In this document: positions 22,419 through 37,931 of the stretch, piece after piece | How positions within the stretch are numbered: the stretch's first letter is position 1 | Layout: the number at the start of each line of letters is the position of its first letter | IMG/VR virus record: IMGVR_UViG_3300025138_000014 | Coordinates: 64,001 to 128,000 of that record | DNA from: a virus | Reading direction: 5' to 3' (one strand) | Length of the DNA: 64,000 nucleotides | Program-made: the position numbers and the translations under genes | Notes under the pieces: generated by a model | Told to the model about the DNA's origin: nothing | Database searches by the model: none | What the model saw: only the letters and a program-made list of their open reading frames with translations

Positions 22419-22420
22419 GA

Positions 22421-22481
22421 CTTGTAGAGCGGATAATCCGGCTACAATTTAATCTTGCTTGCTCAAAAGGAGATAACAATG
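22421..22481 (+). promoter_or_regulatory. ROSE-like RNA thermometer in the hsp20 5' UTR
   Basis: 5' hairpin TTGTAG..CGGA-taa-TCCG..CTACAA, then UCUU(G)CUU pairing with AAGGAGA (SD) with a bulged G; this is the U(U/C)GCU ROSE signature upstream of a small heat-shock gene. Confidence 0.7.
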
Positions 22482-22937
22482 ACAGGCTTACACACACTCT
22501 TCCCTCGCTCATCTTTTGTAGGATTTGATCATCTATTCAACGAACTAGAATGGACGGCAAAACATGCTCAGGATCATTACCCACCCCACAATATTATTAA
22601 GACAGATGAATCAGAATATTTGATTGAACTTGCTATTGCTGGGTTTTCCAAAGATGAAATTAACGTTGAAGTTAAAGATAGAACTTTGACTGTTAAAGGG
22701 GAACATATTTCTAAAGGTCGTGACTTTATTCATCGTGGTATTTCTACGAAGAAATTTAAGCGCACTTTTCGGCTGTCTGAACATGTAAATGTAAACGGAG
22801 CAGATATTCAAGACGGTATTCTGGCAATTCAGTTGCAGTATATTATCCCAGAAGAAATGCGTCCTCGTAAAATCAATATTGGTCAAACGAGGAATTCAAA
22901 TGACACAGACAAAGAACTACTTAACGAAGGCCGTTAA
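22479..22937 (+). CDS. hsp20: Small heat-shock protein (Hsp20/IbpA family)
   Basis: FVGFDHLF, YPPHNI, IELAIAGF, HRGIS...F.R.F.L, GIL.I.L, PEEMRPRKI. Confidence 0.95.
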   Translation: MTGLHTLFPRSSFVGFDHLFNELEWTAKHAQDHYPPHNIIKTDESEYLIELAIAGFSKDEINVEVKDRTLTVKGEHISKGRDFIHRGISTKKFKRTFRLSEHVNVNGADIQDGILAIQLQYIIPEEMRPRKINIGQTRNSNDTDKELLNEGR

Positions 22938-23184
22938 GTTACCACTCAACATACTAAAATCAATTTGGAACGGCATTAAATTAAGTGCTGATATCCGTCA
23001 AACACGAGGTGAACTTTCAAAACTAAATGATGCTGAGTTAAGAGACATCGGTATAACTAGAGGTGATATTGAAGCGATAGCAAGAGGCGATGCTGATTTA
23101 CTACGTTCCGCAGTAAGGAATAAATTTTATTTACCAGATGGTCCTATAAGTTATGTTAATCCTAATTTAAAAGGATGGAGCTAA
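22900..23184 (+). CDS. DUF1127 (YjiS-like) small protein
   Basis: RQTRGELSKLNDAELRDIGITRGDI is the DUF1127 core; GAGG SD before ATG 22900. Confidence 0.85.
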   Translation: MTQTKNYLTKAVKLPLNILKSIWNGIKLSADIRQTRGELSKLNDAELRDIGITRGDIEAIARGDADLLRSAVRNKFYLPDGPISYVNPNLKGWS

Positions 23185-23366
23185 TGACAGCTATCAATAC
23201 AAACATATCTTTCTCTTCGCCATTATCGGACTTGTGGTTAGCATTCGAACGTTGGTTCCAGATAGTGGGATACAGCCGAGCGGCAGCGGAGTTGGCAAGA
23301 CATGGTCAATTAGAAGCAGCCAAAATGTGCATGATGGAAGTGAAAAGAGTACGTAATGGAAGGTGA
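23184..23366 (+). CDS. Small helical hypothetical protein
   Basis: GGAG SD, TAATG coupling; [13 protein letters not shown] motif. Confidence 0.65.
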
Positions 23367-23577
23367 TATCGCAACAATGGGCGCTCTAATTGGCGCTGGA
23401 CTAGCAACGTTCGGAATGGGTGGCGCCGCCATCGCAGTAGGAATGATTGTTGGTAGTGTACTTAAAGTTATGCCCAAGAAGCCTGACTCTGGTACTATGT
23501 TTGTTGGTATTGCTTTTGCAGAAGCATTAGGCATCTTTGCCTTTCTAACAGCATTGTTACTTATGTTCGCAGTCTAA
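23356..23577 (+). CDS. atpE: F0 ATP synthase subunit c homologue with rewired polar loop
   Basis: MEGDI..MGA.IGAGLA..GMGGAA and [26 protein letters not shown] closely match Rhodobacteraceae subunit c as I recall it; the loop lacks RNP. Confidence 0.9.
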
Positions 23578-23789
23578 TGGCTGAGAATCATTTTAGTGCA
23601 GAAGTGGTACAACGCATAGGCTTTTACTCTTTTGCAACAATGTCTTCATTAATAGTAATATGTATTGCCTTTGGGTTTTATGCAGTATTACAAAAATTTA
23701 ATGAACCAAGTTGGAAAGAGGCATGTATTACCAATGGCGGAGTTCCCGTCCAGATTGCAAAGTCAACATTCGACTGTAAAGTCATATAA
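23577..23789 (+). CDS. Small membrane protein with C-terminal Cys pair
   Basis: One TM helix, then C..NGG.P......FDC; TAATG coupling to atpE. Confidence 0.6.
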   Translation: MAENHFSAEVVQRIGFYSFATMSSLIVICIAFGFYAVLQKFNEPSWKEACITNGGVPVQIAKSTFDCKVI

Positions 23790-23793
23790 AATA

Positions 23794-23817
23794 AAAAGAG
23801 GGCTTCGGCCCTCTTTT
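23794..23817 (+). terminator. Terminator closing the hsp20-atpE operon
   Basis: AAAAGAGGGC-TTCG-GCCCTCTTTT. Confidence 0.88.
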
Positions 23818-23821
23818 GCTA

Positions 23822-23850
23822 TTTACAACACCGTCATAATAGTTTATAAT
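23822..23850 (+). promoter_or_regulatory. Early promoter for gp43
   Basis: TTTACA-N17-TATAAT. Confidence 0.8.
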
Positions 23851-23876
23851 GATTATATCATAACGGAGTAATAATA

Positions 23877-26372
23877 TTGTCTTTTTACACATCAGTTAAT
23901 CGTTACGGCAACTCTATCTTATATCGTGGATATAATGACTCTGGAGTTGCTACAGAAACAAAATATAAATTTACCCCTAAACTTTATATTCGATCTCAAG
24001 ATACAAATACAGAATACAAAGCCCTAGATGGTACACCTGTAAAAGAAGTCAACTTTCCTAAAATGGCAGAAGCAAAAGAGTTTTGTGAACAGTACAAAGA
24101 TATTAAAGATTTCAGCGTGTATGGTCAGACCAATTATATTCAACAGTTTATTACAGATAAGTTTCCCGGCAATATTATATTTAATCCTAAACAAGTTAAT
24201 GTTGTAAACTTTGACATAGAAGTCGCTTCCGATGAGGGTTTTCCTAGACCAGAAGAAGCATTGTTTCCAGTTATATCTATTGCTCTCAAGTCTAGCAAAT
24301 CTTCCATATATGAAGTGTGGGGCCTTGGTGATTACGATCACGAGAAAACAGAATTGAATATGAATGGCGATCTTATTCGTTATAGAAAGTTTGATAGTGA
24401 GCAAGCACTTCTTGCCAGCTTCCATAAATATTGGTGTGAGAATAGACCAGATATTGTAACTGGCTGGAACTGTAGATTTTTTGATATACCATATATTATT
24501 AATAGATTGTATCGTATTGGTTCTCCAGAAGCAGTCAAAAGATTGTCTCCCTGGAACTTAGTAAATGAACGCAATACCAAAATCATGGGTAAAGAACAGC
24601 AAGGATATGAAATTGTTGGTATTCAACAAGCAGACTATCTTGAGCTGTTTAAAAAGTTTGGTTACTCTTATGGAACCCAAGAGTCATATGCATTAAATCA
24701 TGTTGCATTTACTGTTCTTGGCGAGAAGAAATTATCATATGAAGAACATGGTAGTTTGCATACACTCTATGAAAAAGATCACCAAAAGTTTATTGATTAT
24801 AACATTAAAGATGTTCAACTTGTTCAACGCATTGACGATAAGATGGGTCTTATTGAACTGGTACAAACTATGGCTTATCGTGCTGGTGTTAATATATCAG
24901 ATACATTTGGTACTACGGCGATATGGGATTCAATCATATATCGTTCACTAAATAGTCAAAAGATTGTTATCATGCCTATCACAGAAAAACAGAAACTACC
25001 TTACCCTGGTGGTTATGTAAAAGATCCAAAAGTTGGCATGCACGAGTGGGTTGTATCCTTTGACCTTAACTCACTATATCCAAATCTTATTGTACAATAT
25101 AATATGTCTCCAGAAACAATCGTTGGTGGTTATCCCCTTGAGAATGGCGTAGAACATTATATGAACTGTGACAAAGTTGTTAGCGAATATGCTGTAGCAG
25201 CTAACGGTTCTCAATATAGAAAAGATAAGCAAGGCATTATCCCTAAAATTATTATTCAGTATTATTCAGAACGTAAAGAAGTCAAGAAGCGCATGTTAAA
25301 AGCGCAGAGTGATTATGAGAAGAATAAAACCACAGAACTTGAAAGAGAAATCAATACACTTCATAACCAACAGATGGCTATTAAGATTTTGTTAAACAGT
25401 CTTTATGGCGCACTCGGTAATCGGTTCTTTAGATATTTTGATATGAGAATGGCCGAAGGTATTACTCTATCTGGTCAACTTTCTATCCTGTGGGCTGAAC
25501 GTGCTATCAATGCAGAAATGAATAAAATTCTAAATACAACGGAGAAAGATTATGTTATTGCTATTGACACTGACTCAGTCTATATTAATTTTGGTCCTCT
25601 TATTGCTAAACTGGCGCCAGCGGACCCTGTTAAAGCACTGGACAAAATATGTAAGGAGCACTTCACTAAAATACTAGCTGACTCTTATGCTAAACTGTTT
25701 GATAATATGAATGGTTATGATAATAGAATGGTTATGGAGCGTGAAGCAATTGCTGATAAAGCTATCTGGACTGCAAAGAAAAGATATATTTTAAACGTGC
25801 ATAATAACGAAGGAGTCCAGTACAAAGAACCTAAACTCAAGATCATGGGTATTGAAGCTGTTAAATCTTCGACACCTCAGGTTGTTAGAGACAAGTTCAA
25901 AGAAATTTTTGATGTTCTAATTAACGGTACTGAAGTTACCACTCAGAAATACATAGCAGACTTCAGACGTGAATTCAATTCTCTACCTCCCGAAGCCGTA
26001 TCATTTCCAAGAGGTGTGACTAATGTTACAGATTGGATAGATAGAAAGACCATTTTCAAGAAAGGCTGTCCAATTCATGTTCGTGGTTCTATTCTATACA
26101 ATAATACGGTCAAAAGTAAAGCAGTGGACAAAAGATATGGTTTAATTCAGAATGGTGAGAAGATTAAGTTTGTTTATCTCAAGATGCCAAATCCAATAAA
26201 GCAAAATGTTATAGCATTTCCGCAATATCTGCCTACTGAATTAGCCCTGCATAAATACATTGACTACGATAAAATGTTTGAGAAAACTTTTATTGAACCT
26301 ATTAAACCTATTCTGGACGCAATCGGATGGACTGTTGAAGATCAGATGACGCTGGAAGACTTTTTTGGATAA
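23877..26372 (+). CDS. gp43: Family B DNA polymerase gp43 (TTG start)
   Basis: ExoI FDIEV, SFDLNSLYP, K..LNSLYGALG, DTDS, KKRY; GGAG SD before TTG. Confidence 0.97.
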   Translation: MSFYTSVNRYGNSILYRGYNDSGVATETKYKFTPKLYIRSQDTNTEYKALDGTPVKEVNFPKMAEAKEFCEQYKDIKDFSVYGQTNYIQQFITDKFPGNIIFNPKQVNVVNFDIEVASDEGFPRPEEALFPVISIALKSSKSSIYEVWGLGDYDHEKTELNMNGDLIRYRKFDSEQALLASFHKYWCENRPDIVTGWNCRFFDIPYIINRLYRIGSPEAVKRLSPWNLVNERNTKIMGKEQQGYEIVGIQQADYLELFKKFGYSYGTQESYALNHVAFTVLGEKKLSYEEHGSLHTLYEKDHQKFIDYNIKDVQLVQRIDDKMGLIELVQTMAYRAGVNISDTFGTTAIWDSIIYRSLNSQKIVIMPITEKQKLPYPGGYVKDPKVGMHEWVVSFDLNSLYPNLIVQYNMSPETIVGGYPLENGVEHYMNCDKVVSEYAVAANGSQYRKDKQGIIPKIIIQYYSERKEVKKRMLKAQSDYEKNKTTELEREINTLHNQQMAIKILLNSLYGALGNRFFRYFDMRMAEGITLSGQLSILWAERAINAEMNKILNTTEKDYVIAIDTDSVYINFGPLIAKLAPADPVKALDKICKEHFTKILADSYAKLFDNMNGYDNRMVMEREAIADKAIWTAKKRYILNVHNNEGVQYKEPKLKIMGIEAVKSSTPQVVRDKFKEIFDVLINGTEVTTQKYIADFRREFNSLPPEAVSFPRGVTNVTDWIDRKTIFKKGCPIHVRGSILYNNTVKSKAVDKRYGLIQNGEKIKFVYLKMPNPIKQNVIAFPQYLPTELALHKYIDYDKMFEKTFIEPIKPILDAIGWTVEDQMTLEDFFG

Positions 26373-26380
26373 GGAAATAA

Positions 26381-27088
26381 ATGAAACATTATATTTTTGA
26401 TATTGACGGAACTTTAACTCCAAGCCGTGGCAGAATTGATCCAGAGTTTGAAACATTTTTTAAAAGTTTTATCAATAAGAATAAAGTGTCTTTAGTTACT
26501 GGGTCAGATAGACCAAAAACTTTAGAACAAATTGGTATTGAAATCTCTGATAGTGTTGATACAATGTATCAATGCTCTGGTAATCACATTTGGAAAAAAG
26601 GTAAAGAGGTATCAAGAATAGATTGGCGCTTACCACATAAAGTGGTTCAATGGCTTTTAATAACTCTTGAGAATAGCAGCTATTCAAAAAGAACCGGTGA
26701 TCATCTTGAAGAAAGAGTTGGTCTTGCCAATTTCTCCATAGTGGGAAGAAAAGCAGATGCACGTCAAAGAAAAGCATATGTAAAATATGATACTAACGTG
26801 GGGGAACGTAAGCTAATTGCTTACAGATTTAATGAAAAATTTGGTAAAAAACTTAAAGCACAGGTTGCTGGAGAAACTGGTATAGATATTATCCCACTTG
26901 GTTGTGATAAGTCTCAAATATTAAAACAGATACCACTTGATGATACAATAATCTTTTTTGGGGATAAGACTGAACTAGGTGGCAATGACTATGAAATTGC
27001 ACAAGCTGTGGATAAAAGATTAAACGGACACTTCCATACAGTCACTGAATGGAAACATACATATAGTATATTGAAAGAGGAAATATAA
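26381..27088 (+). CDS. HAD-IIB phosphomannomutase-like enzyme
   Basis: FDIDGTLT, VTGSD, NFSIVGR, DKSQ, FFGDKT..GGNDYEI as in eukaryote-type PMM. Confidence 0.8.
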   Translation: MKHYIFDIDGTLTPSRGRIDPEFETFFKSFINKNKVSLVTGSDRPKTLEQIGIEISDSVDTMYQCSGNHIWKKGKEVSRIDWRLPHKVVQWLLITLENSSYSKRTGDHLEERVGLANFSIVGRKADARQRKAYVKYDTNVGERKLIAYRFNEKFGKKLKAQVAGETGIDIIPLGCDKSQILKQIPLDDTIIFFGDKTELGGNDYEIAQAVDKRLNGHFHTVTEWKHTYSILKEEI

Positions 27089-27396
27089 TGAACGAAGTAG
27101 CACATTACGAAGAACTTATTGCACAGTGGCACCATGACCGCAATCTAATTAACGGAAGTACCGATAAAGATCAATATATGAAGTTGATTCAAGAAGCAGG
27201 TGAGTTGTCTGATAACATCTGCAAGGGCAGAGATATTCGTGACGACATTGGTGATATGATGGTAGTATTAATTAATATTGCAGAGCGTAATAAATTAACT
27301 CTTGCAGAATGTCTTAAAGTAGCATATGATGATATTAAAGACCGAAAGGGTAAAATGATTGACGGAGTATTTGTCAAAGAAAGTGATTTACAATAG
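27088..27396 (+). CDS. MazG-like nucleotide pyrophosphohydrolase
   Basis: KL.QEAGEL...DDIGDMMVVL, AYDDIKDRKG. Confidence 0.85.
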   Translation: MNEVAHYEELIAQWHHDRNLINGSTDKDQYMKLIQEAGELSDNICKGRDIRDDIGDMMVVLINIAERNKLTLAECLKVAYDDIKDRKGKMIDGVFVKESDLQ

Positions 27397-27415
27397 TGTT
27401 GGATTATGTTATAAT
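27387..27415 (+). promoter_or_regulatory. Early promoter
   Basis: TTTACA-N17-TATAAT. Confidence 0.8.
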
Positions 27416-27434
27416 AAGACAATAAGGAGAATAC

Positions 27435-28376
27435 ATGACTGATTACACTCAACCAAAATATCCAATTTATATTATTTCTAAAGGACGTGCAGACTCTAGG
27501 TTCACATCTAAAACTTTAGATGAACTTAATGTACCATATCGTATTGTTATTGAGCAATCTGAATACAAAGATTATAATAAGAATATTCCAGCAGAGAAAA
27601 TTTTGGTATTACCTGAAGGGTTTCGTGAAAATCCAAATTATGCTTTTCCAGATGCAGCTGGTCGGATGGGTGGTTCTATTCCAGCCAGAAACTTTGTATG
27701 GGAACACTCCATATCTGAAGGTCACAAGCGGCATTGGATTATGGATGATAACATTAGGCACTTTTATAGAGTGCATCAAAATCTAAAAACAATTGTTACA
27801 TCTGGTAATACTATTAGAGCATGTGAAGATTTCACAGATCGTTTTAAAGATGTAGCAATGTCTGGTATGAACTATCAGTATTTTGTTCCAGCTTCCCAAG
27901 CTAAAAAAGCATACACATTAAACACTAGAGTGTATTCTTGTATTCTACTCCGCAATGATATTAAACATCGTTGGCGTGGTAGATATAATGAAGATACTGA
28001 TTTGAGCATAAATATTTTAAAAGACAATCATAATACAATTTTATTTAATGCATTTGTTTGTGGAAAAATGACTACTCTTACAATGGGTGGCGGTAATACC
28101 GATAATGTTTATATTGATCAAGACAATAGACGGACCTTTGCTGAAGCACTAAAAGAACAGCATCCCGATATTGTAGAAATAGTTTATAGGTACCGACGTT
28201 GGCACCATCACGTTGATTACTCTGGTTTTAAAAAGAATAAACTTGAGTTACGTGATGACTATGTTAAGAAAACTGGTATAAATGAATATGGAATGAAGAT
28301 GGTTAAATTAACCGAAGCACAGCACGAGTTGCATAAAGCGACCTTCGGCAATACGGAGAATAGATATTATGACTAA
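27435..28376 (+). CDS. GT-A fold glycosyltransferase, TET/JBP-associated (GREB1-like) DNA-modifying family
   Basis: YPIYIISKGR, ARN..W, WIMDDNI, VYSCILL, RYNEDTDLS, GGNTD, RWHHHVDY. Confidence 0.7.
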   Translation: MTDYTQPKYPIYIISKGRADSRFTSKTLDELNVPYRIVIEQSEYKDYNKNIPAEKILVLPEGFRENPNYAFPDAAGRMGGSIPARNFVWEHSISEGHKRHWIMDDNIRHFYRVHQNLKTIVTSGNTIRACEDFTDRFKDVAMSGMNYQYFVPASQAKKAYTLNTRVYSCILLRNDIKHRWRGRYNEDTDLSINILKDNHNTILFNAFVCGKMTTLTMGGGNTDNVYIDQDNRRTFAEALKEQHPDIVEIVYRYRRWHHHVDYSGFKKNKLELRDDYVKKTGINEYGMKMVKLTEAQHELHKATFGNTENRYYD

Positions 28377-28644
28377 AAAGAGTAAAGCATCAAGCTTGTT
28401 TGTACTTGATGGAACCGAGGAAGATTACGCACAAAACTACTGGGAAGATATGCCAGAGTTTGAGCAGAATGATTTAGATATTTATGGATCAATGAATATT
28501 GCTTTTCGTACAGAAGAGGACTTCAGAGCATTTGTTCAACTTATTGAACAGCCGAGTGTATCTATTAAATCACGTGGAGTTTACTACCCAGTTAGAGCAA
28601 AGAGTGAGAACACATTGCTCCGTTGGATGCCTGATGAAGAATAA
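28369..28644 (+). CDS. Small acidic protein coupled to the glycosyltransferase
   Basis: Overlaps the GT stop; W.DMPEF.Q..F....D...F...I.Q motif. Confidence 0.65.
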   Translation: MTKKSKASSLFVLDGTEEDYAQNYWEDMPEFEQNDLDIYGSMNIAFRTEEDFRAFVQLIEQPSVSIKSRGVYYPVRAKSENTLLRWMPDEE

Positions 28645-28646
28645 AC

Positions 28647-28675
28647 TTTACAGAAACCTTTAAATGTGATATAAT
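28647..28675 (+). promoter_or_regulatory. Early promoter
   Basis: TTTACA-N17-TATAAT. Confidence 0.8.
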
Positions 28676-28681
28676 TATATT

Positions 28682-29602
28682 ATGATAGACATTACAATAT
28701 TTAAAAATCAATTCGACAATAAGACTCATCGTAAGATGAGCTTTGCCGATAAAGATCAGTTTCTTGGATTTCTATCACAGTTATCAAAGAAACCCTTGGA
28801 GGGTAAAAGAAATGCGCAACTTATTAGTCCGGCTGTATATGTCGATGGTTCTACTAGAGCCAACAAAAATGTTTCTCATTGGGCAGGTTGGTGTGCTGTT
28901 GATGTTGACGATTATGTCTTTGAAGGAAAACTGAAGGAAGTTTTAGATGAAAAACTCTCATGGGGGTATATTTGCTACAGTACTGCTAGCAGCACGATTG
29001 AACAACCAAAATTTAGATTGGTTTTCCAAATCAAAGGAAACGTCCCCGCTGAAAGAATTAGACACTTCTGGTTTGCGCTCAACCAAGAACTTGAAGGAAT
29101 GGGAGATAAACAGACTAAGGATCTCAGCCGAATGTACTTCATACCGGCCGAGTACAAAGATGCGAATAATTTCTTTTTCAGTAATCCTGGCGTGTCTATT
29201 GATCCCTATGAGTTAATGTCTCGGCATGAGTATAATGAAAAGAAAAACTCAAATAACTTTTTGGATAGACTACCAGAAAGTTTACAAGAACAAGTAATTG
29301 CTTATAGACAAACTCAATTAACTAATACCGATATCACTTGGACTTCTTATCTTGATTGCCCATTCTGGCCAAAACACTTAGCAACAGAATATATGATGAT
29401 TGCTGGAGAAGGTTGGTATCGTAAGATGTATGCAATTATGGTTAGAGTAGCAGCTACTGCTATCTATAGAGAGTATCCAATTACTGCTGATGAAATTGCT
29501 ACACTATGTAAACAATTTGATATGGCTAACGGTAACTGGTATGAAAACCGACCAATGAGAACTGAAGCAGATCGTGCTTTAGAATATGTACACAGAAATT
29601 AA
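28682..29602 (+). CDS. Putative AEP-superfamily primase (prim-pol like)
   Basis: ISPAVY, R...NV, hhDhD (AVDVDD), YSTAS...PKFRLVF, D...KDLSRMYFIP, helical C-terminal domain. Confidence 0.6.
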   Translation: MIDITIFKNQFDNKTHRKMSFADKDQFLGFLSQLSKKPLEGKRNAQLISPAVYVDGSTRANKNVSHWAGWCAVDVDDYVFEGKLKEVLDEKLSWGYICYSTASSTIEQPKFRLVFQIKGNVPAERIRHFWFALNQELEGMGDKQTKDLSRMYFIPAEYKDANNFFFSNPGVSIDPYELMSRHEYNEKKNSNNFLDRLPESLQEQVIAYRQTQLTNTDITWTSYLDCPFWPKHLATEYMMIAGEGWYRKMYAIMVRVAATAIYREYPITADEIATLCKQFDMANGNWYENRPMRTEADRALEYVHRN

Positions 29603-29605
29603 TGA

Positions 29606-29634
29606 TTTACAATAACCGAAAAATGTGATATACT
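29606..29634 (+). promoter_or_regulatory. Early promoter
   Basis: TTTACA-N17-TATACT. Confidence 0.75.
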
Positions 29635-29679
29635 TACAGAATATTATTCACTAAATTTATATTATGGAGATTACAGAAT

Positions 29680-30186
29680 ATGGAGACTATTGCTCAACGT
29701 ATGCGCAAAGTTGGTACTTACCTCGGATACTTTGATATCCAACCCTATGAGAATGTGAATGAAGATAGTCCTAATTTTGGTGTATCTTACGACAGACTTA
29801 TTTTCCACGCAGTACTTAAACGGCGAGAGTTTATCGCCTTTGGTGATCTAGTGTATTTTATGTACATTAACAATGATCTAGTCAAAGTCGGTAAAGCCGA
29901 AGGTGCTATTGGCTGGGCTGGTAGAATGAACACTTACAGAAAAGATCCTGCTGACGATGCTACCAATAAAAAAATTATGGATATTATGAAAGAGGACTAT
30001 AGTGTTGTAGAACCCATTTATGTGTATGCTATTTCAGTTCCAAGAGTTTCTTCAGATTACTATTGCAACTTAACAGATTCTGCAGTATGTGTATCAATAC
30101 CACGTGCAGGTAAAGTTGAGACATATCTCACTGAATGTGTAGAGGCTCAAGGTGAACAATTAATCTTTTGCAATCAAAAAACCTAA
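29680..30186 (+). CDS. GIY-YIG nuclease resembling T4 endonuclease II (DenA)
   Basis: VYFMYINNDLVKVGK...RMNTYR...DATN, later E and terminal NQ, paralleling DenA IYAIAINDELVYIGK...RINYYR...DSTK. Confidence 0.55.
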   Translation: METIAQRMRKVGTYLGYFDIQPYENVNEDSPNFGVSYDRLIFHAVLKRREFIAFGDLVYFMYINNDLVKVGKAEGAIGWAGRMNTYRKDPADDATNKKIMDIMKEDYSVVEPIYVYAISVPRVSSDYYCNLTDSAVCVSIPRAGKVETYLTECVEAQGEQLIFCNQKT

Positions 30187-30226
30187 TCATATATATAATG
30201 TATAAACAAAATTTGAAGGATATAAC

Positions 30227-31063
30227 ATGAAGAACAAAGTTGCCATTCTCGGTCACGGGTATGTAGGTAAAGCAGTAGAGTACGGCTTTTCAAATAAAAA
30301 GAATAAAATCCAATTAATTGATCCACATCTTTATGATAACTGTGTTGAAGATATTGAAGATCCAACTGTATCATTTGTATGTGTACCTACACCGATGAGT
30401 AGTGATGGCAATATTGATTCTAGTATCGTCGAAGAAGTAACCGAACAATTGATGATTCGTACTTCTGGTTTAATTGTTATCAAGTCTACAGTAATACCAT
30501 CAGTAGTGAAAAGATTAAGCGATAAAAATCATAGAGTAATTTATAACCCAGAATTTTTAACTGAAAGAAATGCTCTTATTGATTTTGTTAATCCTCCAAT
30601 GCACGTATTTGGCGGACACGAAAATGAGACAGAGCAGCTACATAAATTCTATACAACTAATAGCCGTTGTAAACCTGCTCCAATTTTTAAGATGAGTGCT
30701 GCAGAAGCAGCTTTTGTAAAATACGGAATTAATAGTTTCCTTGCAACAAAGGTACTATGGTTCAATCAATATAAGGATATGATAGATGACTTTGGAGCTG
30801 ATTTTGATAACATTTCTAGCGCTATCGGTTCTGATCCCAGAATTGGCCAATCTCACACTCAAGTTCCTGGCCCTGACGGTCGTGCTGGGTTTGGCGGCGC
30901 TTGTTTCCCCAAGGATACATCAGCTCTTATCGGATTTGATCACGGTAATATCCTCAGCGTTCTAAAATTAGTCGTGCAGGAAAACAGTGTTTATCGTAAC
31001 CAGTATGAGTTAGATAGCCGAGAAAAAGAACAGAATGTTGTTTACATTGAGTCAAATGTATAG
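30227..31063 (+). CDS. ugd: UDP-glucose/GDP-mannose 6-dehydrogenase family protein (short form)
   Basis: GHGYVG, CVPTP, IKSTV.P, NPEFL.E, KY..N.FLA.K, D.RIG, GFGGACFPKD. Confidence 0.88.
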   Translation: MKNKVAILGHGYVGKAVEYGFSNKKNKIQLIDPHLYDNCVEDIEDPTVSFVCVPTPMSSDGNIDSSIVEEVTEQLMIRTSGLIVIKSTVIPSVVKRLSDKNHRVIYNPEFLTERNALIDFVNPPMHVFGGHENETEQLHKFYTTNSRCKPAPIFKMSAAEAAFVKYGINSFLATKVLWFNQYKDMIDDFGADFDNISSAIGSDPRIGQSHTQVPGPDGRAGFGGACFPKDTSALIGFDHGNILSVLKLVVQENSVYRNQYELDSREKEQNVVYIESNV

Positions 31064-31069
31064 TATAAT
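31041..31069 (+). promoter_or_regulatory. Early promoter
   Basis: TTTACA-N17-TATAAT inside the 3' end of ugd. Confidence 0.75.
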
Positions 31070-31092
31070 AGACAGATTATAAGGAAGTTAAA

Positions 31093-32061
31093 ATGAAAAA
31101 ACATATAATGGTAACAGGTGGTGCAGGCTTTATTGCTTACCATCTAATACAAAAACTTATTAAAGATGGCTATGAAGTATCTGCATTCGACAACTACAAT
31201 GATTATTATGATCCAAAGTTGAAACATAAACGTGCAGAGGAATTAATGTCTCTTGTTAATGTAGATGTACTTAATTGTGATCTAAAACAAGAAGAGGATC
31301 TGACTGATCTAGTTAGTGCTTACAAACCAGATGCTATTATCCATTTAGCTGCTTATGCTGGCGTAAGACATTCTTTGAGTGAACCACAAACATACATTGA
31401 TAATAATATTACTGGAACACAAAATCTTATTAATGCTTGTGAAAAAGCAGATGTTCAGCATGTAGTGTATGCTTCAACTTCTTGTACTATGGCGGGTAAT
31501 GAATTACCGTGGAATGAAGATGAGAAAACTGGTTATCAATTGAACCCATATGGCTATTCTAAATCAGCTAATGAAAACCAGATGATGTCCAGTAAAATTA
31601 AATTTACAACTGGTCTTCGGTTCTTTACTGTTTACGGACCATGGGGTCGCCCAGATATGGCTCTATTTGACTTTACTAAAGATATTATTGCAGGTACACC
31701 AATCAAGCTATTTAACTATGGCGACATGGTTCGTGATTTTACTTATGTAGATGATATTGTACAAGGCGTTGGCTTAGTTCTAAAAGATAGTTTTGATCGT
31801 GATAGTGAAGATACATTCGGCGAGATATATAATATTGGTTACGGAGACCAAGTTAAGTTATTTGATTTTGTAACTGAGATTGAAGCTAATCTTGGTCGTG
31901 TAGCACAACGCGAGTTAGTTAAAATGCATCCAGCCGATACACGTGAAACTTGGTCCGATACAACTAAAATTCGGAAGCTAGGTTACAATCCTACTACATC
32001 TATTGAAGATGGAGTGGCTAATTTTATAACATGGTATAAAGGATATTATAATGTCAACTGA
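31093..32061 (+). CDS. NAD-dependent epimerase, UDP-glucuronate 4-epimerase-like
   Basis: TGGAGFI, NDYYDPKLK, HLAAYAGVRHSL, Y...K, LRFFTVYGPWGRPDMA, RDFTYVDD. Confidence 0.88.
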   Translation: MKKHIMVTGGAGFIAYHLIQKLIKDGYEVSAFDNYNDYYDPKLKHKRAEELMSLVNVDVLNCDLKQEEDLTDLVSAYKPDAIIHLAAYAGVRHSLSEPQTYIDNNITGTQNLINACEKADVQHVVYASTSCTMAGNELPWNEDEKTGYQLNPYGYSKSANENQMMSSKIKFTTGLRFFTVYGPWGRPDMALFDFTKDIIAGTPIKLFNYGDMVRDFTYVDDIVQGVGLVLKDSFDRDSEDTFGEIYNIGYGDQVKLFDFVTEIEANLGRVAQRELVKMHPADTRETWSDTTKIRKLGYNPTTSIEDGVANFITWYKGYYNVN

Positions 32062-32221
32062 TGCAGCAACACAACTTATGACTGAAGCCGCTAAATTTCA
32101 TGGAATTACATATGCACAACTTCGGCATAGAATTACATCTGGTGGCGAAAGCCTTATGCAACCATATTATGAAAGCAAAAGCTGGAAAGATTTATATAAA
32201 GTAGCAGAACAATGCGAGTAG
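32051..32221 (+). CDS. 56-aa hypothetical (not in ORF track)
   Basis: AAGGA SD; fills the gap and overlaps both neighbours. Confidence 0.55.
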   Translation: MSTDAATQLMTEAAKFHGITYAQLRHRITSGGESLMQPYYESKSWKDLYKVAEQCE

Positions 32222-32634
32222 GTATTACAGCCTCAACCTTTGATTTGCTTCATGCTGGTCACGTTGCTATGCTTCGAGAAGCTAAAGAGCAATGTGATCA
32301 CCTAATCTGTGCACTACAGATTGATCCTACAATTGATAGAATAGAAAAGAACAAACCTATTCAAACTGTAGTTGAAAGATATACTCAGCTGGCAGCAGTA
32401 AGATATGTAGATGAAGTTATTGTATATTCTACAGAACAAGACTTACTAGATATTTTACAAATGTATCCAATTAATGTACGGATCTTAGGAGACGAATACA
32501 AGCTAAAAGAATTTACAGGAAAAAATGAATGCCGTAAACTCGGCATTGAATTACATTTTAATAGCAGAAATCACAGGTTCTCAACATCAGATTTAAGAGA
32601 ACGTGTCTGCAATGAGAGGAAAAAAACCAAATGA
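32212..32634 (+). CDS. Glycerol-3-phosphate cytidylyltransferase-like (TagD family)
   Basis: FDLLHAGH, ER...L....YVDEV, R.H.FSTS.LR. Confidence 0.85.
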   Translation: MRVGITASTFDLLHAGHVAMLREAKEQCDHLICALQIDPTIDRIEKNKPIQTVVERYTQLAAVRYVDEVIVYSTEQDLLDILQMYPINVRILGDEYKLKEFTGKNECRKLGIELHFNSRNHRFSTSDLRERVCNERKKTK

Positions 32635-33671
32635 GTTCCATTATGGATAAACTCCAGAAGAATACTAAGTTGAAAAATACTGAAATTTTATCTGAGTCAA
32701 AATTTTTTAATGAAAAAGATATGACTACAACTTCTGTTCCGATGGTCAATGTGGCACTATCAGGATCAATGGACGGTGGATTATCCCCAGGACTAACAGT
32801 ACTTGCTGGTCCATCTAAACACTTTAAAACTTCCTTTGCTTTACTTATGGCAGGTGCTTATCTGGATAAACATCCGAATGCAGTAATGTTGTTTTACGAC
32901 TCAGAGTTTGGTTCACCACAATCTTACTTTAAACAATTTGGTATTGATACAAAACGGGTACTTCATACACCAATTACTAATGTAGAAGAACTAAAATTTG
33001 ACGTAGTAAATCAACTTGAAGGTCTTGACCGAAAAGATGAAGTAATTATTGTTATTGACTCAATCGGTAATCTTGCTTCAAAGAAAGAACTTGAAGATGC
33101 TCAGAATGAAAAGTCTGTAGCAGATATGTCTCGTGCTAAACAGCTGAAGTCTTTGTTTAGAATGTGTACTCCATATCTTGCTATGAAAAATATTTCTATG
33201 CTAGCAGTCAATCACACTTATCAAGAAATCGGTTTATTCCCTAAAGCAATTGTTTCTGGTGGAACTGGTATATATTATTCAGCTGATAATATTTGGATTA
33301 TCGGTCGCCGCCAGAATAAAAAGGGTATGGAAGTTACTGGTTATGATTTTGTTATTAATGTTGAGAAGTCTCGGTTTGTTAAAGAGAAATCAAAGATTCC
33401 GATTACAGTATCATGGGAAGGCGGAGTACAAACTTATTCAGGTTTGTTAGAAGTTGCAATGCAAGGTGAGTATGTAAGGAAACCAGCAAACGGTTGGTAT
33501 GAACCAATTAACCCAGAAACAGGTGAAGTGTTGGCTGGCAAGGCTCGTGAAGCACAGACCCTAGAAAAAGAGTTTTGGGATCCAGTATTTGAGCAAACCA
33601 ACTTTAAAGAATTTATCAAAAAACAGTTTACAATTGGCCATAAAGCTGATATAGTATTAGAGGTAGAATAA
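32631..33671 (+). CDS. uvsX: RecA-like recombinase UvsX
   Basis: AGPSKHFKT, YDSEFG, IDSIGNLAS, VNHTY, SGGTG. Confidence 0.96.
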   Translation: MSSIMDKLQKNTKLKNTEILSESKFFNEKDMTTTSVPMVNVALSGSMDGGLSPGLTVLAGPSKHFKTSFALLMAGAYLDKHPNAVMLFYDSEFGSPQSYFKQFGIDTKRVLHTPITNVEELKFDVVNQLEGLDRKDEVIIVIDSIGNLASKKELEDAQNEKSVADMSRAKQLKSLFRMCTPYLAMKNISMLAVNHTYQEIGLFPKAIVSGGTGIYYSADNIWIIGRRQNKKGMEVTGYDFVINVEKSRFVKEKSKIPITVSWEGGVQTYSGLLEVAMQGEYVRKPANGWYEPINPETGEVLAGKAREAQTLEKEFWDPVFEQTNFKEFIKKQFTIGHKADIVLEVE

Positions 33672-34024
33672 TGACAGTAGAACATATATTTTATACGGAA
33701 GGAGAGGACTATGAATTAGTCCCTCCCGCCGATCTCAAAGATGATGAAGCGGGTTGGCACCTAAGAATTTTAACGGGAGAATATGTAGAAACAGTATTAA
33801 CTTTTGGAAATGTATCACTAGATGGTACAGATCCAGATGAAGATGATCCAAAAATGTCTTTTAACTTTGAAATTGTTACAACACCAGATCCCGACCTAAG
33901 TACCGAAGATGAAGATTTTCAACACTATGCAGGTGATCTGCTGTTGTCTCTTATAGAACGATCAATAAAAGAGCAAACTATGCAAGTTGAAGAGAAAGCA
34001 AAACCAGTCTCAAGGCGCTCATGA
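33671..34024 (+). CDS. Acidic hypothetical protein (gp40 position)
   Basis: Between uvsX and gp41; function by synteny only. Confidence 0.55.
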   Translation: MTVEHIFYTEGEDYELVPPADLKDDEAGWHLRILTGEYVETVLTFGNVSLDGTDPDEDDPKMSFNFEIVTTPDPDLSTEDEDFQHYAGDLLLSLIERSIKEQTMQVEEKAKPVSRRS

Positions 34025-35388
34025 ATATAGAACAAGTAATTTTAAGAAACATCTTGGTAAATGAACCTTTCATGCGTAAGGTCTTACCATTTATTAAATC
34101 TGAATATTTTGAAGGAGTTTATAATGGCTTATTTAAACAAGTTGTAAATTATGTAAATACATATAATAGATTACCTAGCCTTGAATCGTTTAAAGTAGAA
34201 ATTGATGATGGTAAGTTTTCTGATGAACAATACAGACACGCAGTAGAAATTCTACCAGAAATTTTCAAAGATGATAAGATTGATTATGAATGGTTAGTTG
34301 ATAAGACCGAAAAGTGGTGTCAAGATCGTGCTGTGTATAATGCTATTATGGAAAGTATATCCATAATTGATGGCAAGCATAAAGAATTGACAAAGCAGGC
34401 ATTACCAGAATTGCTTAGTGAAGCCTTATCAGTTACATTTGATGCAAATATCGGTCACGATTACTTTGATGATATGGTTAATCGTTACGAATCATATCAT
34501 ACCACTGAGTCACGTATGCCGTTTGACCTAGAGATGTTTAATAAGATTACCGATGGTGGTTTACCAAACAAGACTTTAAATATCTGTCTTGCTGGTACTG
34601 GAGTTGGTAAATCTTTGTTTATGTGTCACATGGGTGCGGCTGCTCTAACTCAAGGTAAAAATGTTCTTTATATTACTATGGAGATGTCCGAGGAGAAAAT
34701 CTCGGAAAGAATAGATGCCAACTTGCTAAATATCCCTATAGATCAACTTGATACATTAAGTAAAGATCAGTTTACAGAAAGGGTTAGAAAAGTACAAACA
34801 TCTACAAATGGTAATCTTATTGTTAAAGAGTATCCAACAGGACAAGCCCATTCTTCACACTTCCGTGGCCTTTTAAATGAATTAAAACTAAAAAAGAAAT
34901 TTAAACCAGATATCATTTTCATTGATTATCTAAATATCTGTGCTTCATCAAGAATGAAAGGCATGGGAGGATCAATTAATTCGTACACATACATTAAAGC
35001 AATTGCTGAAGAATTACGTGGACTTGCAGTCGAGTTCAACGTACCGATCATCTCTGCAACGCAAACGACTCGTACTGGTTTTGGTAACTCGGATGTTGGG
35101 CTTGAAGATACGGCCGAGTCTTTTGGACTACCCGCTACGGCAGATTTAATGTTTGCTTTAATTTCAACAGAAGAATTGGAAGCAGCAGGCCAGTTAATGG
35201 TTAAACAATTAAAGAATAGATATAATGATCCTACTCAGAATAAAAGATTTATCATTGGAGTTGATAGATCAAAGATGAGATTGATGGATATAGATAATCC
35301 AACCGAGGGCGTTATGAATGATACGCCAGCATTTGATAATAGTAAACAGGGTCAGGATCAGAAGAAGTTTAAAGATTTTAAATTTTAG
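34021..35388 (+). CDS. gp41: Replicative helicase gp41
   Basis: AGTGVGKS, ITMEM, KEYPT, IDYLNI, AEELRGLA, SATQT, QLKNRY. Confidence 0.96.
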   Translation: MNIEQVILRNILVNEPFMRKVLPFIKSEYFEGVYNGLFKQVVNYVNTYNRLPSLESFKVEIDDGKFSDEQYRHAVEILPEIFKDDKIDYEWLVDKTEKWCQDRAVYNAIMESISIIDGKHKELTKQALPELLSEALSVTFDANIGHDYFDDMVNRYESYHTTESRMPFDLEMFNKITDGGLPNKTLNICLAGTGVGKSLFMCHMGAAALTQGKNVLYITMEMSEEKISERIDANLLNIPIDQLDTLSKDQFTERVRKVQTSTNGNLIVKEYPTGQAHSSHFRGLLNELKLKKKFKPDIIFIDYLNICASSRMKGMGGSINSYTYIKAIAEELRGLAVEFNVPIISATQTTRTGFGNSDVGLEDTAESFGLPATADLMFALISTEELEAAGQLMVKQLKNRYNDPTQNKRFIIGVDRSKMRLMDIDNPTEGVMNDTPAFDNSKQGQDQKKFKDFKF

Positions 35389-35396
35389 GAGATTAA

Positions 35397-35579
35397 ATGT
35401 TACCTGATGAAATGGAAGCAGAAAAAAATAGAAAGATTATATTAGCTCAAGCACAACGAATAGAGATACTAGAAAAAAATGTAGCTGATTTGCAACAACA
35501 ACTATATGAAGAATATATCCATAATATAAAAAGGTATAAAAGGGTGAAAGATTATGAGAGCAGGGAAGGTCTGGGGTAG
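35397..35579 (+). CDS. Hypothetical coiled-coil protein
   Basis: AGGAG SD. Confidence 0.55.
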   Translation: MLPDEMEAEKNRKIILAQAQRIEILEKNVADLQQQLYEEYIHNIKRYKRVKDYESREGLG

Positions 35580-35892
35580 TACAGAACTTATAGAAGCAAA
35601 TAATGCTTTGGAGTTTCATAGAATTGAATTTGAAACTGGTACGTGTTCTAAACATAAACACGAATTTAAATGGAATGGCTTTTATGTTGAATCTGGTATT
35701 ATGATGATCAGAGTTTGGCAGAATGATTATGATTTAGTTGATGAAACTGTTTTACAAGCAGGGGAATATACTAAAGTCAAACCAGGTGTTTATCACCAAT
35801 TTGTAGGAATTGAGCCAGGTGTAGCCTTTGAGTTATATTGGGCAGAATTTAACCATAACGATATTATTAGAGAGACAGTAGGTCACGAATGA
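35554..35892 (+). CDS. Cupin-fold protein (sugar isomerase-like)
   Basis: K.WG.....CSKHKH..K...FYV.SG ... PGVYHQF cupin motifs. Confidence 0.7.
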   Translation: MRAGKVWGSTELIEANNALEFHRIEFETGTCSKHKHEFKWNGFYVESGIMMIRVWQNDYDLVDETVLQAGEYTKVKPGVYHQFVGIEPGVAFELYWAEFNHNDIIRETVGHE

Positions 35893-36557
35893 TTAAAGCA
35901 AAGCTAATGGGTTACACTCAAGTACATGAGTCACCCGCATTAGGTAATATTCAAGAACTTGTAGCATTTTGTGCAAGAGTATCTAATCCCTCAAATCAAA
36001 TTAATAGTGAGACAAGTGAAAAACTCATTAAGTATTTGATAAAACATAAACATTGGTCTCCACTTGAAATGGTTTCGGCAACCATGGAAGTTAAGTGTAC
36101 ACGAGATATTGCACGACAGCTTTTACGGCATCGGTCATTCTCTTTTCAGGAATTCAGTCAACGCTATGCTGATCCAGCAGATCAAGAGTCGCTATATGTA
36201 TTGTCAGAAGCTAGGCTTCAAGATACAAAAAATAGACAAAACAGCATTGATTCAGATGATGAAGACTTGCAAGCCGCATGGAATTTACAACAACAAAATG
36301 TAATTGATCAAGCTAAAAAAGCATATGACTTTGCAATCTTTAATGGAATTGCCAAGGAGCAAGCACGTAAAGTGTTACCCGAAGGACTTACTATGTCTAC
36401 ATTATATGTAAACGGAACACTTCGTTCTTGGATACACTATATAGAACTAAGGAGTGCAAACGGTACTCAGAAAGAACATATGGAATTAGCTAGGGCTTGC
36501 GGAGAAGCAATAGCAATTATATTTCCACTAGCAAAAAATTTAACATCAGGAGACTAA
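35889..36557 (+). CDS. thyX: Flavin-dependent thymidylate synthase
   Basis: ARVSNP, HWSPLE, RQLLRHRSFSFQEFSQRY, EQAR.VLP, QKEH. Confidence 0.96.
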   Translation: MIKAKLMGYTQVHESPALGNIQELVAFCARVSNPSNQINSETSEKLIKYLIKHKHWSPLEMVSATMEVKCTRDIARQLLRHRSFSFQEFSQRYADPADQESLYVLSEARLQDTKNRQNSIDSDDEDLQAAWNLQQQNVIDQAKKAYDFAIFNGIAKEQARKVLPEGLTMSTLYVNGTLRSWIHYIELRSANGTQKEHMELARACGEAIAIIFPLAKNLTSGD

Positions 36558-36559
36558 AA

Positions 36560-36808
36560 ATGGGAAAAAAACTCTCAACTTATTATTCAGATTCCAGTGA
36601 AGATTATTGTGAAGTACATTTTAATTATAAAGAAGAATTTGCTTATATAAAATATTTCACGGCTGACGGTACAAGATATTTTGAAGAGTTTTTTCCTAAT
36701 AAGGCTTTGTGTTATGTTGAAGATGCTGCAGAGAACTGGGCTTTAGGCTATAAAGATTTATCACCTGAGCATCATACACAATATACATTAAAGTTTCCAA
36801 ATATGTAA
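36560..36808 (+). CDS. Hypothetical protein
   Basis: AGGAG SD; YVEDAAENWALG motif. Confidence 0.6.
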   Translation: MGKKLSTYYSDSSEDYCEVHFNYKEEFAYIKYFTADGTRYFEEFFPNKALCYVEDAAENWALGYKDLSPEHHTQYTLKFPNM

Positions 36809-36816
36809 AATAATGC

Positions 36817-36845
36817 TTTACATATCTTTCCTAATGTTTTATAAT
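36817..36845 (+). promoter_or_regulatory. Early promoter
   Basis: TTTACA-N17-TATAAT; -35 sits in a 9-bp inverted repeat ATATGTAAA/TTTACATAT. Confidence 0.8.
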
Positions 36846-36885
36846 GAGTATACAACAGCAAAAAAGAAAAGATAGAGGCACTATT

Positions 36886-37485: not shown

Positions 37486-37928
37486 TGGCAAACTTAAACA
37501 ACAATCGCAGCATGAATAAACAATACTGGGATCCTCAAACTCCACCAACTGAGCGTCTTATTACGCAAGAAGAGATTGATAATAATCTCGGAAGTTTGTT
37601 TAATGAACTACATGCAGCAGTGATGCCCAACAGCGGTCTCACCGATGCAGGTGATGAAATAGAATATAAATTCAATGAAAGAAATTATATTGATGAATTC
37701 CAGCAGTATATAGATAAGACATATGAAGGACATTACTCTACAAATAAATTTCAGTCTACTGAAGTCATTATTGACCGAGGTAACGGTACTGGGTTTTGTA
37801 TGGGTAATGTAGATAAGTATTCTAATCGCTATGGAAACAAAGGTACTCGTGAAGATGCACGCAAAGACCTGATGAAAATACTACACTATGCATTAATTCA
37901 GTTGCACGTTCATGATAATGATCTGTAA
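37485..37928 (+). CDS. DUF3310-like conserved phage protein
   Basis: HY......EVI...GFCMGNV.KY..RYG.K....DL.K..HY. Confidence 0.65.
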   Translation: MANLNNNRSMNKQYWDPQTPPTERLITQEEIDNNLGSLFNELHAAVMPNSGLTDAGDEIEYKFNERNYIDEFQQYIDKTYEGHYSTNKFQSTEVIIDRGNGTGFCMGNVDKYSNRYGNKGTREDARKDLMKILHYALIQLHVHDNDL

Positions 37929-37931
37929 CTA

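Follow-up and report, generated by a model that had tools for sequence, protein, structure and literature searches.

What is the target of a TET-associated glycosyltransferase (TAGT) where a hydroxymethylase or TET enzyme is absent? The question is raised by a 64,000-nucleotide window (bases 64001–128000 of the 151,329-bp IMG/VR contig IMGVR_UViG_3300025138_000014, termed G000; coordinates are positions in this window unless marked otherwise), in which an island of genes between the polymerase gene gp43 and uvsX combines a TAGT with enzymes of sugar-nucleotide metabolism. A first-pass annotation had read this island as a candidate uronic-acid DNA hypermodification locus. The reading that we prefer, and to which we give about an even chance, is that the phage glycosylates its DNA in step with replication, using a uronic acid that it makes itself. 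It draws on the gene identities, their conserved linkage and a C-terminal tail motif, from which we infer DNA as the target, uronic acid as the transferred sugar and all of the enzyme activities. Uronic acid on DNA is already known (from phage SP-15, and as hexuronic-acid-5-hydroxymethylcytosine (5hmC)), and sugar-coated DNA is a main means of phage escape from restriction enzymes and CRISPR, as well as a source of DNA-labelling enzymes.

The gene row between gp43 and uvsX

Ten genes, all on the + strand, occupy positions 26381–32634 (Table 1), between gp43 (23877–26372) and uvsX (32631–33671). The gene row described in the first-pass annotation held up, with identities largely supported by comparison with Pfam, PHROG and the Protein Data Bank (PDB): the PMM-type HAD protein, the TAGT, the Ugd-family dehydrogenase, the short-chain dehydrogenase/reductase (SDR) and the cytidylyltransferase-like protein pass curated Pfam cut-offs, and the MazG-like protein and the primase rest on PHROG matches. 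The early promoters reported for the island correspond to four 11/12 matches to TTTACA-N17-TATAAT, located in the short gaps that precede gp43, TAGT, primase and SDR, and the interval 22419–37931 is free of TATAAATA late promoters. In the T4 record the corresponding gene order is 43-imm-42-beta-gt-segA-uvsX, and the TAGT of phage T6 is located at the beta-gt position (PMC13390438). Because gene assignments, promoters, T4 gene order and the position of the T6 enzyme agree, both the observed gene row and its claimed synteny with the T4 gp42/beta-gt slot hold.

The TAGT of the island (TAGT#1) aligns with all of PF20691 (model positions 1–205 of 205; 146 bits, against a cut-off of 27.5) and is 40–44% identical to TAGTs of Aeromonas, Tenacibaculum and Vibrio phages. 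It displays the GT-A catalytic motif series R ... DDD ... ED(Y/F) defined by Pyle et al., in that R18, D104-D105-(N106) and E186-D187 vary little or not at all among 15 homologues. A second enzyme, TAGT#2, which has DDD at the central motif, lies 3.7 kb past the window end (genome positions 131729–132667; L083:3729–4667; 37–38 bits against PF20691). The gene preceding TAGT#2 encodes a Bmp/PnrA-like nucleoside-binding lipoprotein. In one set of related loci (L168–L178) the gene order is gp43-TAGT#2-TAGT#1-s91-primase, placing TAGT#2 directly between gp43 and TAGT#1.

The 91-residue protein s91, encoded directly after TAGT#1, shares the motifs W-x-x-MPEF, F..L..Q and (W/Y)(F/Y)P with the first ∼100 residues of longer TAGTs (Vibrio phage Kuja gp032/033, Tenacibaculum phage PTm1 gp209 and Paraglaciecola GD virus 1 (ParaGD1) gp80). 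Judged by these shared motifs, s91 is the detached N-terminal domain of such longer enzymes and the TAGT is split over two genes; the ‘small partner’ of the glycosyltransferase noted earlier does adjoin it, and is a split-off TAGT domain rather than an accessory protein. The two genes are adjacent in 45 of 50 related loci, and s91 lies upstream of TAGT in two loci (L054 and L057). s91 matched no protein family, profile comparison with the PDB returned nothing meaningful, searches of the Atlas returned only viral hypothetical proteins, and its AlphaFold model was unusable (pLDDT 56, pTM 0.25). In the L044 group a 318-residue protein without a Pfam family is encoded between s91 and the primase (L044:11275–12231); its LDMDS stretch could be a GT-A DxD motif.

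The C-terminal ends of these proteins bear on where they might act. The polymerase of this phage, which shares 59% identity with its counterpart in the uncultured Kyanoviridae member ‘Phage C48C1’ and ∼47% with cyanomyophage polymerases, ends in TLEDFFG, and TAGT#2 ends in SLSEFF. The T4 polymerase ends in ASLDFLFG, the tail by which it binds the gp45 clamp. TAGT#2-type proteins of relatives end in DLSEFF, TLDDFFG, TLDEFLK, SLENHFK or VNTLF, and their polymerases in TLEDFFG or SLQDFFC. Comparable ends are found on the Dam methylase encoded after gp43 in C48C1 (TLDAFFG), on the AGT-like glycosyltransferase of locus L126 (GLEEFF), in a weaker form on the C5 methylase of the same locus (HLDAFMV), and on the 318-residue protein of the L044 group (SLDDFF). 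Among 881 open reading frames (ORFs) of four genomes the strict motif occurs in 11, 4 of which are gp43. This tail, common to polymerase and DNA-modifying enzymes, is the best indirect evidence we have, and suggests that the TAGT pair acts on DNA at the replication fork. A 121-residue protein encoded at G000 138970–139335 (L083:10970–11335) likewise ends in SLENFFG, and its G001 homologue in TLEDFF; it contains a YY..D.P..SD..FD stretch reminiscent of the Ia domain of NAD-dependent ligases.

Four genes of the island, together with a cupin gene further downstream, could supply the sugar donor. The PMM-type mutase scores 97 bits (cut-off 22.4), displays the DxDGT motif as FDIDGTL (residues 6–12), and has eukaryotic PMM1/2 as its best PDB relatives (1e-27), followed by Lactococcus lactis alpha-phosphoglucomutase (3e-9); its gene is present in many island relatives with or without TAGT. 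The dehydrogenase, which we call mini-Ugd, matches UDP-glucose dehydrogenases in the PDB at 9e-26, with GxGxxG (GHGYVG), NPEFL and the catalytic-cysteine motif GGACFPKD all aligned. Its N-terminal domain is shortened (the hidden Markov model match starts at model position 73), the C-terminal UDP-binding domain PF03720 is absent from it by Pfam, and the next gene begins 30 bp downstream. Among the best 120 homologue clusters listed (53–99% identity, nearly all from marine metagenomes), all are 263–294 residues long and contain PF03721 and PF00984 only, and the two-domain form is therefore no truncation artefact. The UDP-sugar dehydrogenase of the first-pass annotation is thus confirmed in family and catalytic motifs, with the correction that it is a two-domain form.

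The SDR aligns closely with 6zl6, the Bacillus cereus UDP-glucuronate 4-epimerase, and with MoeE5, also a 4-epimerase of UDP-glucuronic acid (UDP-GlcA). It shares YxxxK and the GLRFFTVYGPWGRPDMA block with its PDB relatives, and each of the features by which we recognize a UDP-GlcA 4-epimerase (close similarity, GxxGxxG, YxxxK and the FFTVYGPWGRPDMA block) is present; none of the NCBIfam equivalog models is matched above its cut-off. The family assignments of mini-Ugd and SDR agree with the earlier proposal that this pair would make UDP-GlcA and then UDP-galacturonic acid (UDP-GalA). The nucleotidyltransferase (NT) scores 77 bits against rfaE_dom_II (1.4e-21) and 63 bits against TagD (2e-17), both far below the cut-offs; its best PDB match is ethanolamine-phosphate cytidylyltransferase (ECT; 1e-17), followed by TagD (9e-13), and it carries the motifs HAGH and RFSTS. 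The cupin, which we count in the sugar set as a possible sugar isomerase or epimerase, has copies of 71–82% identity in 40 related loci and in G001, mostly inside the gp43-uvsX island.

The most economical reading of these families is a donor route that would lead from hexose-6-phosphate through hexose-1-phosphate, NDP-hexose and NDP-hexuronate to an epimer, probably UDP-GalA; a mannose or mannuronate route may operate instead. A further decoration with polyol phosphate, which had also been proposed, gained no support: the island genes, for which no dedicated family search was made, include no evident CDP-alcohol transferase.

Table 1. Features of the island and the downstream cupin gene (window positions)
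Feature	Position	Strand	Supporting match or remark
PMM-type HAD-IIB phosphohexomutase (putative; hexose-6-phosphate to hexose-1-phosphate)	26381..27088	+	PF03332 1.4e-27
MazG-like all-alpha NTP pyrophosphohydrolase	27088..27396	+	phrog_715 2e-37; phrog_1992 8e-43
Early-type promoter-like site TTTACA-17-TATAAT, before TAGT	27387..27415	+	11/12, consensus match only; 38-bp gap
TAGT#1, GT-A TET-associated/JGT-like glycosyltransferase, catalytic domain only	27435..28376	+	PF20691 1.9e-42
s91, 91-residue TAGT N-terminal-domain homologue, translationally coupled to TAGT#1	28369..28644	+	overlaps TAGT stop
Primase, replisome gene inside the island, outside the sugar pathway	28682..29602	+	phrog_9765 2.3e-38; no Pfam match
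p168, putative GIY-YIG nuclease of T4 EndoII (DenA)/Hpy188I type, 168 residues	29680..30186	+	profile and fold
mini-Ugd, two-domain NDP-sugar 6-dehydrogenase, 278 residues	30227..31063	+	PF03721 1.5e-18; PF00984 8.8e-16
SDR, UDP-glucuronate 4-epimerase type	31093..32061	+	PDB 5u4q 1.6e-77; 6zl6 1.5e-43; MoeE5 1e-32
s56, small ORF that overlaps both SDR and NT	32051..32221	+	no family match
NT, HxGH nucleotidyltransferase (HldE domain II/TagD/ECT-like)	32212..32634	+	PF01467 1.4e-14
Small metal-binding cupin	35554..35892	+	Cupin_2 9.6e-5; downstream of the island proper here

Sugar genes and DNA-modification genes in related loci

We compared the island with related loci (designated by L-numbers; the L041/L045 genome is CheckV-complete, L045 lying in G002) and with the genomes of relatives, namely G001 (86% complete), G002 (CheckV 100%), G006 (91% complete) and C48C1 (complete). 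In L126 the gene order is DUF1599, NT, ThyA-like, dCMP deaminase, UDG-like, AGT-family glycosyltransferase, SDR, Ugd and C5 methylase (3629–12014), followed by uvsX. The AGT-family enzyme (the family of T4 alpha-glucosyltransferase) matches PF11440 at 5.7e-37, and the four genes that immediately precede uvsX are abutting or overlapping; L126-type relatives share 59% identity with this phage in Ugd and 77% in UvsX. Because their Ugd and SDR genes stand in this row with those of an AGT-family glycosyltransferase and a C5 methylase, near a ThyA-like hydroxymethylase candidate, the sugar-acid gene pair is tied to DNA in these relatives. In a tentative, by-eye alignment, Asp of the ThyA-like protein lines up with Escherichia coli Asn177 and Asp169 is kept; by the criteria of PMC13326640 this points to a dCMP hydroxymethylase and away from a 5-hydroxy-dCMP synthase. 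We predict that the L126 island is a glycosyl-5hmC system with uronic-acid donors.

A similar linkage is seen around TAGT. Where the sequence of a related locus extends 7 kb or more downstream of TAGT (22 loci), Ugd and SDR are both present in 18 cases and NT in 17, in shuffled order. TAGT, s91, Ugd, NT and SDR abut one another beside nrdB/nrdA in L041/L045, and L039 has the order TAGT-s91-SDR-Ugd. The L044 group instead carries a full-length, three-domain Ugd (with PF03720) and an unrelated SDR beside TAGT, which would represent a non-orthologous replacement with function kept. Genes for SegE-type GIY-YIG homing endonucleases lie near nrd genes, both in the window (55020–55475) and in L045, where the gene immediately precedes the compact TAGT cassette (L045:9171–9623); homing endonucleases may help to move TAGT modules.

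Viewed from Ugd, the linkage is broader. Among 35 loci with enough flank, 30 of which include NT, TAGT is found in 13, the set of AGT-like glycosyltransferase, C5 methylase and ThyA-like protein in 5, a ThyA-like gene alone in 2, a Dam methylase in 2 and a GT4-like transferase in 1; the other 12 contain none of these DNA-modification genes. The Ugd/SDR/NT set is thus not dedicated to TAGT, since it is conserved in relatives without one. The proposed link between sugar genes and glycosyltransferase stands where compact TAGT cassettes and the AGT-SDR-Ugd-C5-methylase operon occur, and gives way where the set is kept without TAGT. TAGT and the ThyA-like/AGT/C5-methylase set look like alternative occupants of one slot, because they never share a locus. 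The island is most aptly viewed as a conserved core of sugar-nucleotide genes with an adjoining slot that takes alternative DNA-modification modules. In TAGT-less relatives it contains a further protein (p319/p330) that we considered as a glycosyltransferase and rejected, as it is a multi-pass membrane protein, PiT-like by eye.

Genes for other acidic sugars also appear to be drawn to the island. Close relatives (L010:7423–8851; TAGT 80% identical) have a KdsA-like (DAHP_synth_1) and a KdsB-like (CTP_transf_3) gene between the primase and EndoII-like genes, a pair that would supply CMP-Kdo (the activated form of 3-deoxy-D-manno-octulosonic acid, Kdo). A complete 34-kb phage with terminal repeats has the order s91-TAGT-SDR-Amidoligase_2-GATase-GGACT beside its terminase gene (L054:9735–14444), and contains no ThyA or TET gene. 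There the sugar carboxylate may be amidated; tailoring of a carboxylate sugar would account for the presence of an amidoligase.

Taken together, a plausible sequence of events would be as follows. The PMM-type mutase, perhaps with the cupin and NT, would replenish hexose-1-phosphate and NDP-hexose pools, mini-Ugd would oxidize the C6 alcohol of the activated hexose to yield a uronic acid, and the SDR would epimerize the latter, most likely from UDP-GlcA to UDP-GalA. TAGT#1 and its split-off domain s91 would then move the sugar onto phage DNA, and TAGT#2, tethered to the gp45 sliding clamp by its gp43-like tail, would add or extend the glycan on newly made DNA. The EndoII-like nuclease would then turn on the unmodified DNA of the host, and the pool of a canonical dNTP may be drained by MazG.

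The acceptor and the competing explanations

Several observations weigh against replication-coupled glycosylation of DNA with a uronic acid, and are gathered here together with the explanations that they favor. The earlier remark that the window contains no hydroxymethylase or TET gene extends to the rest of the 151-kb contig, which has an estimated completeness of ∼71% and so misses ∼29% of the genome. Neither ThyA (PF00303) nor TET/JBP (PF12851) was found in G000, G001, G002, G006, G010, G012 (the genome of a complete 34-kb phage, which has s91-TAGT and direct terminal repeats) or fragments, the TET search having been run without a positive control. No 2-oxoglutarate oxygenase is common to the TAGT-bearing genomes (2OG-FeII_Oxy_3 is present only in G000 and G002, in unrelated regions), and no AlkB-type oxygenase was found in those searched. 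The genes found in G000, G001 and G002 and missing from C48C1 are only TAGT, NT, RNase H, PhoH and three small unknowns, with no acceptor candidate among them, and Pfam sweeps of the window, including 20 further ORFs, returned no base-modifying enzyme. ThyA-family genes are present in 4 of 5 cultured TAGT phages, where several are possibly plain thymidylate synthases.

Two candidates for the missing activity were rejected. ThyX was considered as an unusual hydroxymethylase, but its RHR...S...S.R motif is canonical and the enzyme is missing from G002 and C48C1. The cupin was considered as a substitute for TET, but it is not large enough, its motif is HxH..E..H and it accompanies all types of module.

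The remaining points concern the donor and the distribution of the genes. The lack of a UDP-binding domain in mini-Ugd means that activity on UDP-glucose is not assured. The 12 of 35 Ugd loci noted above keep the sugar genes without any DNA glycosyltransferase or DNA-modifying gene, and there is no TAGT anywhere in complete C48C1 or in 91%-complete G006, which retain them as well. Conversely, loci L168–L178 carry both TAGTs and no Ugd, SDR or NT, and in small phages TAGT lies among head and packaging genes.

Should DNA nevertheless be the target, the split TAGT and its clamp-tethered partner might place a phage-made uronic acid on replicating DNA at an acceptor other than 5hmC, 5-hydroxymethyluracil (5hmU) or 5-hydroxycytosine (5hoC). 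We consider this narrower proposal unlikely. If true, it would imply either that a novel chemistry attaches the sugar to a canonical base or that the hydroxyl is made by an unrecognized enzyme. It would also mean that acidic, glycosylated genomes exist in an abundant, ocean-wide group of T4-like phages, and that mini-Ugd represents a novel type of enzyme, with either a non-UDP donor or a DNA-attached sugar as its substrate.

Of the competing explanations, the one that survives best is that the sugar-nucleotide genes (PMM, cupin, NT, Ugd and SDR, with KdsA/B in relatives) are auxiliary metabolic genes for glycans other than those on DNA, and merely share an early hotspot with TAGT. Their products could serve remodeling of the host envelope or lipopolysaccharide (LPS), or the glycosylation of virion or exported proteins by a GT8/GT25 island that begins at 62 kb. 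The retention of Ugd, SDR and NT without TAGT fits this explanation, and PMM, HldE-like NT, GalA and Kdo genes are also a set for LPS core sugars. The GT8/GT25/methyltransferase island of G000 and G001 could use the same donors, a possibility that the first-pass annotation had raised and that is still a serious contender; it runs from 62089–64000 of the window on to G000 138813, comprises three GT8-like paralogues, two GT25-like and two methyltransferase-like genes and a Cys-rich exported protein, and is mostly absent from G002 and C48C1. In cyanophage S-SSM7, PMM-like and Ugd genes lie in a separate region (194–206 kb) and are assigned to LPS. This explanation is harder to reconcile with the overlapping AGT-SDR-Ugd-C5-methylase operon of L126 and its ThyA-like gene, with the compact TAGT-s91-Ugd-NT-SDR cassettes beside nrd genes, or with the non-orthologous Ugd/SDR replacement beside TAGT. 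Early promoters, the translational coupling of NT to uvsX (whose start it overlaps), and the apparent absence from the island of genes for a membrane glycosyltransferase, a flippase or a lipid carrier also argue against it. On balance we rate it as rather unlikely.

In a second explanation both TAGTs glycosylate DNA with ordinary host donors such as UDP-glucose, the donor used by the T6 TAGT, so that the sugar on the DNA would be neutral and the uronic-acid genes would serve another end. The gp43-TAGT#2-TAGT#1-s91 loci without Ugd, SDR and NT, and the lack of a UDP-binding domain in mini-Ugd, point in this direction. The presence of Ugd and SDR in 18 of 22 TAGT loci and the five-gene abutting cassettes point away from it, as does the demonstration that a GT-A enzyme and an epimerase from a metavirome contig (contig 57) make hexuronic-acid-5hmC in E. 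coli (10.1101/2023.12.21.572611). We regard it as quite unlikely.

Finally, action of TAGT#1 and s91 on a protein or other non-DNA acceptor, in the manner of animal GREB1 (with a replisome, internal-head or virion protein as target), would account for the lack of a hydroxylated-base pathway in every TAGT+s91 genome examined, including the complete 34-kb phage, for TAGT between the portal and head-morphogenesis genes of Vibrio phage 1.076.O and near terminase in L054, and for the ∼65% of such glycosyltransferase contigs in a metavirome survey that have no base-modifying neighbor (10.1101/2023.12.21.572611); it is nonetheless very unlikely, given the clamp-type tail that TAGT#2 shares with DNA methylases and an AGT-family DNA glycosyltransferase, the action on DNA of all experimentally characterized phage members of this GT-A family, and the EndoII-like nuclease nearby.

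Neighboring genes, distribution and comparison with known systems

The remaining genes of the island are less directly connected to sugar transfer. The MazG-like gene lies directly upstream of TAGT in most relatives, where it is 75–96% conserved, and is present in TAGT-less relatives too; its Pfam MazG match (1e-3) is below the cut-off and it has no PDB match. Removal of a canonical dNTP is a possible role. The putative nuclease p168, with the conserved motifs VY.MY...K.GKA...GR...VET, had been called DenA-like, for which the sequence support is weak (best PDB profile match 2wsh, T4 EndoII, E 0.12) and the fold support better: with a model of modest quality (pLDDT 62) Foldseek returned only 3oqg (Hpy188I) and 2wsh at probabilities above 0.9 (0.93–0.99; TM ∼0.4). 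The primase keeps its position in all relatives, and s56 is conserved at 51–56% in some.

Further downstream, the window encodes a DUF6267 ligase-like protein (43934–46546; 1.4e-101), two genes from a 314-residue cytidylyltransferase-like protein. A fragment-sized Na/Pi cotransporter-like gene (41435–41926) and an HD_4 RelA/SpoT-type hydrolase gene (46977–47519) are probably auxiliary genes for host takeover or phosphate stress.

Megablast with the locus gave no DNA-level match to cultured phages. In metagenomes it was present at 86–99% of sampled words in 20 runs (19 seawater/marine and 1 sediment, from 11 studies, 2017–2025), 3 of which are possibly the source sample; no RNA run was among the sequencing runs listed as holding it. 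As the locus is near-intact across these 20 runs, the phage is common and little diverged. A widespread marine T4-like lineage would thus keep a swappable DNA-modification slot by its polymerase gene, together with its own acidic sugar donors. The system offers three targets for biochemistry (a putative DNA glycosyltransferase tethered to the clamp, a TAGT divided over two genes, and a family of dehydrogenases without a nucleotide-binding domain), and if the sugar goes elsewhere than DNA, it would correct the habitual assumption that any TAGT acts on DNA.

Among known systems, the subclass II clusters of Pyle et al. resemble this island in their GT-A family, their R...DDD...ED motifs and the partnership with a nucleotide-sugar epimerase. 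Their HAD/cytidylyltransferase and Kdo chemistry also matches the PMM and NT found here and the KdsA/B of relatives; other metavirome clusters put heptose or Kdo on 5hmC with HAD and cytidylyltransferase helpers (10.1101/2023.12.21.572611). Unlike the present island, the subclass II clusters adjoin a C5-methyltransferase and a TET-like 5mYOX that make 5hmC, neither of which was found here, and they lack its mini-Ugd uronate supply, split TAGT, clamp-tailed second TAGT and T4-like replisome region.

The T-even phages with glucosylated hydroxymethylcytosine (HMC) share the gene 43-uvsX slot, and the EndoII-like nuclease and MazG-type NTPase may parallel their denA and gene 56. The island TAGT also resembles the T6 TAGT, which is the beta-glucosyl-HMC alpha-glucosyltransferase of T2/T6 at the beta-gt position (PMC13390438). 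They differ in their dCMP hydroxymethylase, not found here, and in the donor: theirs is UDP-glucose from the host, in place of which a uronic acid made by the phage is probably used here. Moreover, the T6 enzyme adds a second sugar to the glucose placed by alpha-gt, whereas no first-sugar enzyme of another family is present here.

Bacillus phage SP-15, whose DNA carries phosphoglucuronate, encodes Ugd, PMM, a uridylyltransferase and glycosyltransferases (PMC5977210). It thus resembles this phage in having its own UDP-glucose dehydrogenase, phosphomannomutase, sugar-1-phosphate nucleotidyltransferase and glycosyltransferases. Its acceptor, in contrast, is dihydroxypentyl-uracil derived from hydroxymethyl-dUMP (by a ThyA homologue), its glycosyltransferases and nucleotidyltransferase belong to other families, and its lineage is unrelated. 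Phages RB69 and DLP3, which make arabinosyl-5-hydroxycytosine, illustrate that an entire NDP-sugar pathway for DNA can be encoded by T4-like phages (PMC13326640), with their own isomerase, HAD phosphatase and nucleotidyltransferase genes clustered with DNA glycosyltransferases as in the present T4-like phage; theirs are GT-B transferases, accompanied by a ThyA-homologue synthase of 5-hydroxy-dCMP, neither of which is present here. What distinguishes the island from all of these is the combination of a uronate supply from a Ugd lacking the UDP-binding domain, a split TAGT, a clamp-tailed second transferase, a modular slot beside the polymerase gene, and no known hydroxylated-base pathway.

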